Source: a virus
Direction: 5' to 3' (one strand)
Virus record (IMG/VR): IMGVR_UViG_3300036770_003016
Length of the DNA: 64,000 nt
The translations under genes and the position numbers were made by a program. Within the stretch, counting starts at the first letter, position 1. Every line of letters begins with the position of its first letter. Below the pieces are notes generated by a model, which saw nothing but the letters and a program-made list of their open reading frames with translations, ran no database searches and was not told the origin of the DNA. Positions 34,568 to 60,209 of this stretch are shown one piece after another.

Positions 34568-35272
34568 TTAGTCCCACAGATTTCTGTAGTACTTACCAAA
34601 CAGTCTTGTACCGTTATTGATTCGTTCATTGTACTTTTCGTAACCTTCACGATCAAACTCTGCGGTGTGATTTGGTCCCCTCTCAAAAGTATAAAGAGTT
34701 GGTTTACCATTCTCATCCCACTCGCAAGGTACAGACTTCATATCATGTACACCAGTATGGAATTGTGCATCATAGTCATCGTTACATAACTGTTCAAATG
34801 CCCAAATCATTTCATCAAGAACCCATTCCCATCGTGCATGAATATCACAATGACTTTCTTTTGGTTCGTCTTGCTTATAGAAATCAAAAGTTTCTTGTGC
34901 ATCATATTCTTCATGTGTGATGCAACGAAGATGTTCTGGTACATCCTCTAAGTCTACCATAGGAGAACCATGCTTAGTCTTTTTCAACTGCTTGAGCATT
35001 GGCAGGATGATTGGAGACAATGTTGTATCCATGTTCCAAGTGTCGTACTTGTCAATCTTGACATACTCAATTCTTGGATGAACAAAATCAAGAAACTTCT
35101 GAAACCCAACACAAACAGGATTCAGAAGATTGACAAACTTCTCGTACTTGTTTTTTGGATCGTCATCAAGATTATAGATGATGTCTTTGTCTTTTTCCCA
35201 AAAACAAATTTTGGTCAAAATTGTATATGGAGACAACCAATGATTACGATATTTGCTGATGTATACTTTCAC
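34568..35272 (-). CDS. Conserved T4-like hypothetical protein
   Basis: IDKYDTWNMDTTL, WEWVLDEMIWAFEQ, LFGKYYRNLWD. Confidence 0.65.
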   Translation of the reverse strand: MKVYISKYRNHWLSPYTILTKICFWEKDKDIIYNLDDDPKNKYEKFVNLLNPVCVGFQKFLDFVHPRIEYVKIDKYDTWNMDTTLSPIILPMLKQLKKTKHGSPMVDLEDVPEHLRCITHEEYDAQETFDFYKQDEPKESHCDIHARWEWVLDEMIWAFEQLCNDDYDAQFHTGVHDMKSVPCEWDENGKPTLYTFERGPNHTAEFDREGYEKYNERINNGTRLFGKYYRNLWD

Positions 35273-35285
35273 AATGTTTTCCCAT

Positions 35286-35628
35286 AAAAAAATAAGTGCC
35301 GACTGATTGGGTGATAAGGTACAGTCGGCGAAACCTCAGCTCAGCATGCCTTAGGCAGCTAAAGCGAAACGCTCATCGTTTGCGTTTATTTTATTTACTT
35401 TTTACGACTCTCTGTGTCGGATCGTCCATCTTTCTACTCTTTGCCCTGTCGAAACCAGGTCAGGCCCATTAGGAAGCATACTAAATCTGCACTTTTTCAG
35501 TCGGGGCTATCTGCTATTATGCAGCCTACCGGCAGTCCTTGACCGATCTTCATAGTATGCTTTCTGGTGGACCTGGAGGGAATCGAACCCTCGTCCAGAA
35601 CACCTTTCAATTAACTTCATACGATCAT
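35286..35628 (-). ncRNA. ssrA: Circularly permuted (two-piece) tmRNA
   Basis: Acceptor piece ending GGTTCGATTCCCTCCAGGTCCACCA (3' end 35565) precedes the coding piece starting GGGCCTGACCTGGTTTCGACAGGG (35467); G3:U70 pair; tag ANDERFALAA* at 35383-35351. Confidence 0.92.
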
Positions 35629-35634
35629 ATTACT

Positions 35635-35663
35635 ACTATAACAGAAACTATTTATTTTGTCAA
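35635..35663 (-). promoter_or_regulatory. Sigma70-type promoter for tmRNA
   Basis: TTGACA-N17-TATAGT immediately upstream of the acceptor piece. Confidence 0.75.
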
Positions 35664-35977
35664 GCAGGTTTACCGTTATTTGCCGGTTTAATTTCTTCGC
35701 CTGAACTGATAATACAGTATGTTTTGTCGCCAGGAAAATATTCTACAAGAGTCCAAGATTTAGTCTCAAAATTAATATAAAGAGTAGTGTGAATCTTCAT
35801 TGGTTGACTAGTAGTAACACTTTCTCTTATTGTTGCCATTTGAAATGCTGGTACTTCTTTGTATACTCTAAGCATTTCTCTCATCTGTTCTTCATCACCA
35901 CAATCGATTGGGATTTGATAGTTTTGAGAAAATGCAGCCAAAGGAAACATCATTAAAGCTGCGATTAGTGATTTCAT
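35660..35977 (-). CDS. Secreted/periplasmic hypothetical protein
   Basis: Signal peptide MKSLIAALMMFPLAAFS; two Cys. Confidence 0.55.
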   Translation of the reverse strand: MKSLIAALMMFPLAAFSQNYQIPIDCGDEEQMREMLRVYKEVPAFQMATIRESVTTSQPMKIHTTLYINFETKSWTLVEYFPGDKTYCIISSGEEIKPANNGKPA

Positions 35978-55648: not shown

Positions 55649-55693
55649 AATAAAAACATTATAACATAAATTTGTGTTGTTTACAGGTAATAT

Positions 55694-56407: not shown

Positions 56408-56875
56408 TTAAGCAGCTAAACTTTTGTAACGATCTGCAGCGTATGATGCCGCAAACGCTCTTGGTTTTACCATAGGAATTACATTACAAGTTCCACGAAT
56501 ATAACCAATTGCTTCATTGATCACGCAATTTGAACCATGCATTTCACTTGGGTTGATATCAAGGTGGACTTCTACATCACGACCTTCCAGAACATCAGCC
56601 AACTTTAAATACATTTCAGATACCTTGTATACTTCATTCATCAAACGGTATCTCGGACGATCTTCTTTTTGGTCATAGTCTCTTTCACGAACAACTTCAC
56701 CAAAAAGTTTGCAACCGTGTTTTCCATCTTTGTGAACAACTATAGCAATTATATAGTCAGCATGCCACACTTCATTCACTCTTAATCTTTCAGAATCACA
56801 TCCAAGATAAATTTTTGTTTCTGGCGATTGTCTTGAGATGTAATCTTTCACTTCTTGTAAATTTATCTTGAACAT
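56408..56875 (-). CDS. RNase H-like YkuK (DUF458) family protein
   Basis: IYLGCDS, RLMNEV, EVHLDIN, KP.AFAASYAAD. Confidence 0.8.
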   Translation of the reverse strand: MFKINLQEVKDYISRQSPETKIYLGCDSERLRVNEVWHADYIIAIVVHKDGKHGCKLFGEVVRERDYDQKEDRPRYRLMNEVYKVSEMYLKLADVLEGRDVEVHLDINPSEMHGSNCVINEAIGYIRGTCNVIPMVKPRAFAASYAADRYKSLAA

Positions 56876-57381: not shown

Positions 57382-57551
57382 ATTAGTGAGAGTACTATCA
57401 TATCTGTTTAAGGACACTTTTCAGTCCTCTCTGCATCCCTTAGACTCACCACAAGTCTCGCACCAACGGCGTGGATTCATGCAAAGATGAGTACTACCAC
57501 GATAGTCTGGCTGCTGGTTAGGCACTTCGTTCTACAGACTCTCACTAATGG
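57380..57551 (-). ncRNA. Inverted-repeat-bounded structured RNA cassette
   Basis: Perfect 14-bp IR CCATTAGTGAGAGT...ACTCTCACTAATGG linking tRNA-Asn CCA to tRNA-Met 5' end. Confidence 0.55.
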
Positions 57552-57623: not shown

Positions 57624-57624
57624 A

Positions 57625-57818
57625 CAGGTGCTTCCTCTCTGCGGTGGTAATTATAGTGTCTCCAGTTTCGAACCCTTCAACGACACCTTCCACCCACTTC
57701 ACGACCAAAGAGAATTCTCGCATTGCCAGCGCCATTTGCTCCAAATGGTAAGGTCCTGTGGGTATCACACCACTTCTCGACATGCGGACCACACTAGCCG
57801 TTGATTAGACGGCACGTT
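57625..57818 (-). ncRNA. Unidentified GC-rich structured RNA(s)
   Basis: Non-coding, GC-rich, several hairpins, between tRNA-fMet and tRNA-Asn. Confidence 0.45.
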
Positions 57819-58054: not shown

Positions 58055-58060
58055 AAAATT

Positions 58061-58147
58061 TGGTGCTATGTCCTACTTGCAATAGGACTCTAGTCGCAGT
58101 TTGAGAGGCATCGTTCCTAGGATCGAGAGGCACATTCTGCCACAGCG
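58061..58147 (-). ncRNA. tRNA-like RNA without recognisable anticodon arm
   Basis: GCTGTG/CATAGC-A-CCA end, GGCA-GAATG-TGCC arm, TCCTA-TTGCAAG-TAGGA T-like arm. Confidence 0.5.
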
Positions 58148-58167
58148 TAAAGCGACGCTGTGCATCT

Positions 58168-58243
58168 TGGTGGAGAGTATCGGGTTCGAACCGATGACCT
58201 CCTGCTTGCAAAGCAGGCGTTCTCCCAACTGAACTAACTCCCC
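58168..58243 (-). tRNA. tRNA-Ala (TGC)
   Basis: Loop TTTGCAA; G3:U70. Confidence 0.92.
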
Positions 58244-58301
58244 ATATTGAAACACACTATGCCACGCTCTGAACCTGGACTCTTAGTAATGTGTTCGAAT
58301 A

Positions 58302-58465
58302 TGGTGTTGCTTGTTCCCGTCCGTCGGGCCAATGTGTCGGGCTTTATTGCTCTCTACCTATTCAGCCATTCCCATCGTCGAGAGTCAATGGGAAACATCT
58401 TGACACACCATCTAACTTAGATTACTTTGCCATTAGGCGTTTCATCTACTAGCAGTCAGCAAACC
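58302..58465 (-). ncRNA. ~164-nt CCA-terminated structured RNA
   Basis: 5' GGTTTGCT pairs with 3' AGCAACACCA; bounded by IR cassettes. Confidence 0.45.
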
Positions 58466-58568
58466 ATATTGAAGCACACTGACAGTATCGAAACTGCCCA
58501 CACCGCCGAAAGACGATGCTAGGTCCACTCCCAAGGCCGGCGCCATCTAGCCTTAGTGTGCTTCAATA

Positions 58569-58719
58569 TGGTTGCTGGTTACGACTCCAGCACAATCGTA
58601 TCGTCATTGTCGCTCGAATCACGCCTGTGTCTTCGTCAAAGGCTCGCCGCCTTTATACACGCTTCAGGTATTCGTGTTCTGGGATCAGCCCGAGGACTTT
58701 TCGGTCCCCACTTACTCCC
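58569..58719 (-). ncRNA. ~150-nt CCA-terminated structured RNA
   Basis: GGGGACCGAAAAGTCCTC hairpin; 3' TGCTGG-AGTCGTAA-CCAGCA-ACCA minihelix. Confidence 0.45.
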
Positions 58720-58821
58720 ATATTCAAGCACACTCGTTGTAGACTTTCTGTTAGTATCCCTTACGGGTCCCCGCTGGCAGCCCCAATGGCTGGGCCGGGC
58801 GACTAAGAATGTGCTTGAATA

Positions 58822-58907
58822 TGGTGGGCTTCGTTGGAATCGAACCAACGCTTTCTCTTTTCGATTGCTCTACTCAGAGTCGTGCCCCCAGCAAACACCA
58901 GAAGCCC
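58822..58907 (-). ncRNA. tRNA-like RNA with expanded anticodon loop
   Basis: Perfect GGGCTTC/GAAGCCC acceptor, D arm, canonical GTTCGATTC T arm, 17-nt anticodon-position loop. Confidence 0.7.
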
Positions 58908-59000
58908 AAATAAACTTTACCATATTGAAGCGCACTTAGACTACTACCCTACTCGAGCATAGCCTTTCAGAGCTTCACCCAAATGCACTTCAGTATGGTA

Positions 59001-59114
59001 TGGTAGCAGGAGTGGTTGCGATCCACTGCAGAGCACCGGGATTAAGGCCTTGTAGTTGGCTTGCTCTAGAGTCACCAATCTCTCAGAGGACCAATGACCG
59101 GCTTCATACCTGCC
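59001..59114 (-). ncRNA. tRNA-like RNA with two enlarged arms
   Basis: GGCAGG/CCTGCT-A-CCA acceptor; AGTGG-ATCGCAA-CCACT T arm; long internal hairpins. Confidence 0.55.
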
Positions 59115-59209
59115 CTACTACCATATTGAAACACACTGGTCGAAGCAGATACGGAAGACACCCGCTGCTGTTTCCGATGCCTAGTCGGACTCGTCAATGC
59201 GCTTCAATA

Positions 59210-59297
59210 TGGTGGGTGGTGATGGTAACGCTCCACGAGGCAACTTCCGATCTTATTATGCCGACGGTTTTACAGACCGCTGACCGGGGCACCACCC
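59210..59297 (-). tRNA. Non-canonical D-armless tRNA-Tyr (GTA)
   Basis: GGGTGGTG/CACCACCC-A-CCA; GCGGT-CTGTAAA-ACCGT; long variable arm; only a 9-nt connector in place of the D arm. Confidence 0.65.
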
Positions 59298-59302
59298 GTA
59301 TT

Positions 59303-59379
59303 TGGTACACCGTAGGGGATTTGAACCCCTGATCTTCTCCGTGAAAGGGAGATGTCCTAGGCCGCTAGACGAACGGTGC
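59303..59379 (-). tRNA. tRNA-Glu (TTC)
   Basis: Loop CTTTCAC. Confidence 0.9.
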
Positions 59380-59381
59380 AA

Positions 59382-59407
59382 GTAAACAACACAAATTTTT
59401 AAAGAAC
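59382..59407 (-). promoter_or_regulatory. rrn-like boxA antitermination element, copy 2
   Basis: GTTCTTTAAAAATTTGTGTTGTTTAC just downstream of the internal promoter. Confidence 0.65.
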
Positions 59408-59429
59408 AATTCATCACATCATGTAGATC

Positions 59430-59482
59430 ATTATACACTAAACCTACGAATTGTCAACTACTACTGTTGTAAAAAAACAACA
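59430..59482 (-). promoter_or_regulatory. Internal tRNA-operon promoter with upstream palindrome
   Basis: TTGACA-N16-TATAAT; TGTTG-N8-CAACA at 59465-59482. Confidence 0.78.
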
Positions 59483-59485
59483 GAG

Positions 59486-59563
59486 TGGAAGTACGGGTCG
59501 GATTCGAACCGACGAATCAAGAGTTTTGCAGGCTCCGCCATTAGACCGCTCTGGTACCGTACT
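59486..59563 (-). tRNA. tRNA-Cys (GCA)
   Basis: Loop CTGCAAA; U73. Confidence 0.88.
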
Positions 59564-59568
59564 ATAAC

Positions 59569-59658
59569 TGGTGGAGAATCAGGGAGTCGAACCCTGTGAC
59601 CCTATTTCTAGAATCTACGGATTAGCAATCCGCTGCATTACCATCCTGCCCATTCTCC
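59569..59658 (-). tRNA. tRNA-Ser (GCT)
   Basis: Loop TTGCTAA; long variable arm. Confidence 0.9.
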
Positions 59659-59662
59659 GAAT

Positions 59663-59754
59663 TGGTGGAAGCGGTGAGATTCGAACTCACGGGCCACTTT
59701 CATGACCGACAGTTTTCAAGACTGTTGCAATAAACCGGACTCTGCCACACTTCC
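59663..59754 (-). tRNA. tRNA-Ser (TGA)
   Basis: Loop CTTGAAA; long variable arm. Confidence 0.9.
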
Positions 59755-59825
59755 ATATGGAAACACATTGCCAAGTAGAGCCATGGTATCTTGTGCGGGA
59801 GCAACCCCTACAATGTGCTTTCATA

Positions 59826-59920
59826 TGGTCCTTGGACTAGGATTCGAACCTAGATCATCCCCTCATCTAGAGGCATCGCCGAGGTATAAGCTCGGAGTTT
59901 TACCATTAAACTATCCAAGG
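59826..59920 (-). tRNA. tRNA with TAT (Ile) anticodon and long variable arm
   Basis: CCGAG-CTTATAC-CTCGG; ~25-nt variable region; 95 nt. Confidence 0.75.
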
Positions 59921-60002: not shown

Positions 60003-60027
60003 TAAACAACACAAATTTTTAAAGAGC
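60003..60027 (-). promoter_or_regulatory. rrn-like boxA antitermination element, copy 1
   Basis: GCTCTTTAAAAATTTGTGTTGTTTA, resembling boxA TGCTCTTTAACA. Confidence 0.7.
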
Positions 60028-60029
60028 GG

Positions 60030-60067
60030 AAAACAAAAACCCCCGAATTTTTTAGGTTCGGGGGTTT
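60030..60067 (-). terminator. Attenuator terminator upstream of tRNA operon
   Basis: 11-bp stem AAACCCCCGAA/TTCGGGGGTTT followed by TTGTTTT. Confidence 0.85.
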
Positions 60068-60092
60068 GTGTGAAAAACGATTAAAACTATTT

Positions 60093-60209
60093 TTACGCAA
60101 ACCCCCCAATATCACTAAAATTGCAATTTGGTGAGCGATACTCTGCCTGCCATGTGCCTGTTGCACTGGCCTTGAGAGTAATTGTAGTGAAATGTAAGGA
60201 AGTTTTCAT
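60093..60209 (-). CDS. Putative attenuator leader peptide (38 aa)
   Basis: MKTSLHFTTITLKASATGTWQAEYRSPNCNFSDIGGFA*; last codons overlap the antiterminator GGGGGTTTG. Confidence 0.65.
   Translation of the reverse strand: MKTSLHFTTITLKASATGTWQAEYRSPNCNFSDIGGFA

Follow-up and report, generated by a model that had tools for sequence, protein, structure and literature searches.

A phage tRNA operon that may double as an operon of exchangeable small RNAs released by RNase III

What do phage tRNA islands contain besides tRNAs? The locus described here raises this question, as six copies of one inverted-repeat stem lie between its tRNA and tRNA-like genes, each closing a different piece of RNA. The locus was found in a window of 64,000 nucleotides (the whole stretch of DNA that was analysed, IMG/VR record IMGVR_UViG_3300036770_003016), which is part of a 120-kb virus contig with 34% GC and a completeness of 68%. 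The gene order of this contig looks T4-like, and the phage is uncultured; the gp23 capsid gene was present in four of the five long carrier contigs tested, with sizes of up to 400 kb. A permuted tmRNA of the betaproteobacterial type (35260-35677, minus strand) hints at the host group. The cassettes, as we call each stem together with its enclosed cargo, sit in a minus-strand operon in which 24 tRNAs were called, most of them without a cassette.

All features of the array lie on the minus strand and are given here in the order of transcription. A tRNA with a UAU anticodon and a long variable arm (59826-59920) supplies the CCA with which cassette 6 begins (59753-59828; cargo 59770-59811, predicted product 59821-59758), and the first two G of tRNA-Ser(UGA) (59663-59754) close it. 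Such a long variable arm is unusual for a tRNA-Ile, and similar genes were seen in loci L145, L149 and L125. A perfect sigma-70 promoter (59457-59430) and a boxA (59396-59408) follow, upstream of cassettes 5 to 1. Cassette 5 (59121-59212; cargo 59138-59195, predicted product 59205-59126) begins with the CCA of an atypical tRNA-Tyr-like RNA with a GUA loop (59210-59297). This RNA was missed by ARAGORN and Rfam and has abnormal D and T arms; it is conserved, with 21 matches showing paired-end changes. Next come a tRNA-like RNA with paired ends, a T-arm-like hairpin and CCA (59001-59122), for which a homologue was searched for and none was found, cassette 4 (58920-58998; cargo 58937-58981, predicted product 58991-58925), placed on the basis of its fold, and a second tRNA-like RNA with acceptor stem, T arm and CCA (58822-58907; RF00005, 31.9 bits). 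Cassette 3 (58718-58824; cargo 58735-58807, predicted product 58817-58723) is separated from cassette 2 (58464-58571; cargo 58481-58554, predicted product 58564-58469) by a non-tRNA RNA with a hairpin and CCA at its end (58569-58719), and cassette 2 from cassette 1 by another CCA-terminated non-tRNA RNA (58302-58465), which has one partial homologue (L057). The first two G of tRNA-Ala (58168-58243) close cassette 1 (58242-58304), whose cargo (58259-58287) has 29 nt and whose predicted released RNA (58297-58247) has 51 nt.

An earlier note, made from the letters of the window, had placed six cassettes at these positions, with cassette 4 ending at 58997; its boundary lies one base further, at 58998. 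The compensatory change reported for copy 3 (TTCAAG/CTTGAA) is present. The observation that G-U wobbles favour pairing on the minus-strand RNA holds for four copies, the other two being neutral. Most stems had been said to start on the CCA of the upstream RNA and to end on the GG of the next one. The first part applies to five cassettes and fails for cassette 4, where the CCA lies 2 nt further upstream; the second is certain for cassettes 1 and 6, likely for cassette 5 and incorrect for cassette 4. The cargos are indeed mutually unrelated and GC-rich, with 29-74 nt and 49-60% GC compared to 34% in the genome, and they belong to six different families. Within the 120-kb contig the arm motif is confined to the tRNA operon; in the window it was matched 11 times, where 0.67 matches would be expected. 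The minus-strand folds of all six cassettes are more stable than those of shuffled sequences (z -2.9 to -5.9).

Viral contigs were scanned three times by stem and metagenomes once by cargo, which yielded at least 895 cassettes (627 distinct) in at least 344 loci, with up to 12 per locus among the matches listed. Neither the stem nor cargo 1 had a match in a collection of prokaryote genomes, and cultured phages gave only tRNA matches and none for cassette 1; by these searches, the stem is a phage-only family. Among the matches listed, 451 of 460 cassettes lie near tRNAs, and G-U wobbles favour the tRNA strand in 454 cases compared to 34 for the other strand. Where a tRNA abuts upstream, its CCA occupies stem positions 1-3, with the 3' end at position 3, in 265 of 282 cases listed, and the final two G of the stem are the start of 86 downstream tRNAs among the matches listed. 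Strand-biased wobbles and a fixed CCA/GG register indicate that the stem is selected as RNA and set in register with the tRNA ends.

Rfam 15 was searched at its gathering threshold and, judged by E-value, returned no family over any cargo in the window and two cassette-rich loci; in the window, no family covers the cassette region. Among the matches listed for a further 40 loci (at least about 54 bits), tRNA, GOLLD and a group I intron were the sole families. The GOLLD RNA lies about 500 nt from a cassette (L232, 4804-5219), and the group I intron in another carrier operon (L100, 926-1123).

The cargos are highly diverse. The matches listed contain 563 distinct cargos of 18-206 nt (median 56) in up to 295 families, an upper count as sequence clustering splits some related cargos; 160 of the 295 were seen once, and the Chao1 estimate is about 570. 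Of the roughly 50 families that contain at least three members, 39 have compensatory pairs (a tally that may include two duplicate families); invariant loops occur as well. Cargo interiors fold modestly better than shuffles (mean z -0.5). When cargo 1 alone was searched for in metagenomes, 117 matches with full context were obtained, seven of which are due to chance. In the remaining matches (about 110), the 29-nt cargo is nearly invariant and always lies inside a covarying stem. Cargo 1 varies less than its own stem. It has some 60 different upstream neighbours, and it shows no inner covariation.

Five of the six window cargos have homologues. Cargo 2, a multi-arm fold with a T-loop-like 3' hairpin, is 98.6% identical in loci L117 and L129, where it is flanked by the Tyr-like RNA and tRNA-Ala. 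The homologue of cargo 3 in L047 carries compensatory changes; its hairpin tips vary and its 3' single strand is invariant. Cargo 5 has a homologue in L279, in a different context. The conserved loop of cargo 6 contains a 6-nt palindrome, and in its homologue in L047 both inner helices are altered on both sides while the loop is kept. For cargo 4, neither the family comparison nor a cargo-first scan gave a homologue, and cargo-first scans for cassettes 3 and 5 revealed no further ones. Taken together, comparison with relatives makes it very likely that the cargo is under selection.

By eye, the cargo at L091 3446-3524 and its relatives show an invariant AGUA/GAA internal loop resembling loop E or the sarcin-ricin loop. 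A hammerhead-like reading of cassette 5 and a GAAA-receptor reading of cassette 1 were discarded on inspection by eye, as the core positions do not fit. CsrA-type GGA words and Shine-Dalgarno-like words are not enriched in the cargos.

Two loop types give hints on what the cargos may do. Among the matches listed, strict T-loops occur in 20 families compared to 0.6 expected, and the T-loop is often the 3' hairpin beside the closing stem. With a stem of 10 bp and no CCA, such cargos would be mimics of the tRNA elbow that cannot be charged. Hairpin loops with a GC-rich palindrome were counted in 22 families among the matches listed, compared to 7.3 expected; palindromes overall are not enriched, only those in hairpin loops. 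In two families the centre of the loop changes yet unambiguously stays self-complementary. This cannot be explained by pairing within one molecule and suggests that RNAs of the palindrome families form kissing dimers; cassette 6 is the only one in the window that hints at a kissing loop. T-loop and palindrome families together account for less than one fifth of the families.

Palindromic loops maintained through compensatory change would also fit functional cargos that act as RNA-only assemblies or as cis elements, that is, as multimers like GOLLD or ROOL, as scaffolds, or in transcription and folding of the precursor. GOLLD and ROOL RNAs form multimers and are located close to tRNA islands (PMC12286853), and the GOLLD RNA in L232 lies close to a cassette. 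We regard this explanation as unlikely: most families have no palindromic loop, hundreds of folds are many for a single cis task, and the occurrence of cargo 1 beside so many neighbours argues against a neighbour-specific cis role.

The invariance of cargo 1 without inner covariation could also be expected of antisense regulators or guides, and lambda provides Hfq-bound sRNAs of similar size (10.1101/2024.10.31.621285). The analogy with lambda LPR2 is a loose one, as RNase III is not mentioned in that paper. The earlier note had considered such guides, and our searches of the phage contig and of rRNA lend them no support. Complements to the cargos in the phage contig do not exceed 11 nt, complements to E. 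coli or betaproteobacterial rRNA are not in excess, and a search of both strands of the prokaryote genomes for the 26-nt core of cargo 1 gave no exact match. Most families covary as folds. An antisense role is improbable. Mimicry of rRNA was rejected as well: a few 13-mers were shared, without significant excess, and one apparent rRNA match stemmed from a wrongly oriented locus. One cargo (L065, 230-330) has a 13-nt match to the 530 loop of 16S rRNA, which is not significant across the set.

Ligands that act in trans on proteins are a fairly probable reading of the cargos, rather than guides or cis elements. Comparison with relatives shows that the cargos are kept for their shape and loop sequence, and they would most likely act on host or phage proteins, some as tRNA-elbow mimics (T-loop families) and others as dimers (palindrome families). 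Ligands for a wide range of proteins would be consistent with invariant loops, with the presence of each family as one copy per genome, and with a pool that is open and shuffled. No partner gene of the cassettes was identified among the neighbouring genes. Overall, the cargos are probably a released library of structure-based RNA ligands acting as protein decoys.

How would these RNAs be released? The stem is a double helix of 17 bp, above the minimum of about 12 bp for an RNase III substrate, and it is covarying and strand-biased. We compared it with the published cleavage consensus of E. coli RNase III (PMC4357697). The consensus stem agrees at nine of ten informative positions in one register and at no more than five in 13 others, and the window arms agree at 7-10 of 10; as the RNase III consensus is weak and self-complementary, the two arms count as one test, not two. 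The fitting register predicts a staggered cut with 2-nt 3' overhangs. In non-seed cassettes, substitutions are concentrated around the predicted cut, at pairs 6-9, whereas pair 10 is invariant. In 38 cassettes with cargo 1, 12 of the 17 stem pairs change on both sides, which was reached by none of 500 shuffles and by no slid control. The fit to the consensus and the covariation are good but not final evidence for an RNase III site, and release of the cargo by this enzyme is likely as a prediction from the consensus fit. In this respect, too, comparison with relatives supports the earlier note, which had proposed an RNase III-type stem. No gene for RNase III was found in two complete carrier genomes; the enzyme would therefore come from the host.

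Processing would then proceed as follows. A long transcript would start from the sigma-70 promoters with their boxA sites. Host RNase III would cut the 5' arm of the stem behind its seventh base and the 3' arm five bases short of its end. The upstream RNA would keep its CCA and a trailer of 4 nt, and the downstream tRNA would carry a leader of 3 nt. Trailer and leader would be removed by normal trimming and RNase P, and the freed product would be an RNA of 50-100 nt closed by about 10 base pairs. A CCA followed by a trailer of a few bases and a short leader are ordinary substrates for 3' trimming and RNase P, respectively, and the predicted cut products would suit both.

The stem might instead be read by another protein or nuclease, or be only nicked, the cargo staying joined to its neighbours. 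An RNase H-like gene (PF04308) lies within the tRNA operon of the window (56408-56875, minus strand) and is present in 76 of 358 cassette loci, among the commonest neighbours of cassettes as counted within these loci. In addition, pair 8 is the only stem pair that is often unpaired in the 38 cargo-1 cassettes, with an A-C mismatch in 21 of them. Such a mismatch could lead to a one-strand cut that leaves the cargo attached, as T7 R1.1, which is cut on one strand, sets a precedent (PMC8708148). We consider both variants improbable, given the fit of the RNase III consensus in a single register and a context resembling that of rRNA operons. The leader strands that follow the two boxA sites (one with boxA 60016-60028 at the operon start, 60003-60028; the other at 59382-59398) could each form a duplex of 16-17 bp with 55668-55684, near the operon end, in the leader-trailer layout known from rRNA operons.

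Stems excised by RNase III need not carry anything useful. Intervening sequences (IVSs) of rRNA are removed in this way with no effect detected (PMC8708148), and processing spacers of this kind with a neutral interior would account for the many families seen once and for cassette 4, which is without a homologue. For the conserved families, this reading is disposed of by cargos that are conserved and covary in relatives, with cargo 1 more conserved than its own stem and inner compensatory changes in 39 families; most tRNAs of the operon also do without a cassette. The explanation, which the earlier note had weighed as mere spacers, is largely refuted by conservation and very unlikely.

The cassettes that we take to be selected and RNase III-released also move between phages. 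In L117 and L129, which probably represent one population, three segments of the window, namely the Tyr-like RNA, cassette 2 and tRNA-Ala, recur with an identity of 97-98%, while the rest of the operon is mostly 70-85% identical; where the segments join, the overlaps lie within stem arms. The RNA that separates cassettes 3 and 2 of the window is found in L124 as well, arm to arm (58734-58557, 91% match), and L272 and L328 have cassette 1 in common with the window, again arm to arm. Mosaic junctions in arms were thus seen in L117/L129, L124 and L272. Among the matches listed, 49 of 162 repeated 35-nt upstream flanks precede differing cargo families, and the same family occurs twice in only seven of 251 multi-cassette loci. 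None of the cassettes listed carries its cargo inverted, and a search for empty sites gave no clean insertion junction. Judging from the junctions, the stem arms double as recombination points. Near-identical arms would recombine and swap cargos and inter-cassette RNAs among phages, and homologous recombination between like arms would suffice without a dedicated enzyme. A mobile DNA hairpin (MITE, REPIN or attC-like) aimed at tRNA ends would share the terminal inverted repeat, variable interior and shifting position, but is extremely unlikely in view of the strand-specific G-U bias, the lack of inversions, the register fixed with CCA, the failure to find a Y1 transposase in the 68%-complete contig or a clean empty site with target duplication, and the absence of the stem from prokaryote genomes.

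With these comparisons, the modular platform proposed in the earlier note is supported in its three parts: modularity, conservation of cargo and swapping of cargo. We lean towards the overall explanation that this tRNA operon doubles as a small-RNA operon from which swappable ligands would be released by RNase III.

The operon contains further conserved RNAs without the cassette stem. A 195-nt non-coding RNA in the gap between tRNA-Met and tRNA-Asn (57624-57818, minus strand) is conserved, with 47 matches in related loci and no Rfam match, and two structured RNAs (57382-57548 and 58058-58167, minus strand) are conserved with 9 matches each.

Upstream of the operon, a candidate attenuator (60030-60209, minus strand) comprises a leader ORF of 38 aa (60209-60093), an antiterminator and a terminator. 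Similar candidates were found in L201, L155, L064 and L351; together with that of the window, their leader ORFs have 32-40 aa (that of L064 counted from an internal start) and are divergent in sequence. In five of six distinct loci, the leader peptide contains 19-20 of the 20 amino acid types, for which the chance is 0.1-6% each. The leader stop lies in the 5' arm of the antiterminator, which competes with the terminator just before boxA and the first tRNA. With this candidate all-amino-acid attenuator, a shortage of any charged tRNA would open the operon. Our literature search found no paper on an all-amino-acid attenuator.

A role of the cargos specifically against host defence, for which the earlier note had suggested aptamers, decoys or antitoxin mimics, is possible, though doubtful. 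That the targets are defence proteins is a guess by likeness to anti-defence gene islands, to which the candidate attenuator adds a little weight. In its most specific and tentative form, the proposal would be that aquatic T4-like phages share an open pool of several hundred RNA ligands in swappable RNase III cassettes, each a decoy or inhibitor directed against a particular host protein of defence or translation control, with the first promoter read through when charged tRNA is short.

How does this family relate to known systems? RNase III processing stalks, such as those of pre-16S and pre-23S rRNA and the early sites of T7 including R1.1, likewise enclose structured RNA in a consensus-bearing duplex, and rRNA operons share the sigma-70 promoter, boxA and leader-trailer duplex. 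In contrast to these stalks, the cassettes use one standard stem, set on tRNA ends up to 12 times per locus, which holds hundreds of unrelated small folds and serves exchange. The IVSs of 23S rRNA are also hairpin inserts with a variable interior that are excised by RNase III (PMC8708148), as is predicted for the cassettes. Unlike IVSs, the cassettes lie between tRNA or tRNA-like genes, not within rRNA, and their interior is strongly selected.

Structured non-coding RNAs are also made from the tRNA cluster of T4, as species 1 and 2 RNAs. GOLLD and ROOL are structured RNAs of tRNA islands with intermolecular loop pairing (PMC12286853), which for the cassettes is a prediction. In contrast to the cassettes, GOLLD, ROOL and the T4 species RNAs are single families without a shared closing stem; the cargos tested have no Rfam match. 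Y RNA and YrlA, which act with Ro60, combine a conserved terminal stem with a variable, sometimes tRNA-like domain. The cassettes differ in lacking the bulged Ro-binding helix and in having the T arm at the 3' end. The YrlA covariance model (RF02553) gave no score over any cassette, and no TROVE (Ro60) gene was found in the 68%-complete contig.

Arrays of tRNAs with variable spacers (Altae-Tran 2023, PMC10910872) resemble our loci in having variable inter-tRNA sequences near RNase H-like genes, and single cargos may be among the 10,006 candidate phage RNAs of Fremin 2023 (PMC10690425). Compared by description, the texts of both papers describe no shared RNase III stem and no exchange. CRISPR and integron cassette arrays likewise have repeats that bracket variable, exchangeable units, but the repeats of the cassettes are inverted and read as RNA, and the cargo is selected for structure; no cas or integrase gene was noted adjoining the cassette arrays. 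The cassette family is not a member of the IVS, Y RNA or REPIN families or of any Rfam family tested, and our literature searches found no description of its architecture. The likely processing step is textbook, and a library of RNA folds that are selected and exchangeable has not been described.

The family offers several hundred undescribed natural RNA folds whose ends are defined by one processing signal, which allows direct synthesis and screening. The question of what phage tRNA islands contain receives an answer that can be tested, a putative RNase III site doubles as a place where RNA genes are exchanged, and the arrangement provides a natural blueprint for the release of any small RNA from a polycistron. 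If it is true that the cargos inhibit defence proteins, RNA-based counter-defence would be far wider than the few known cases.
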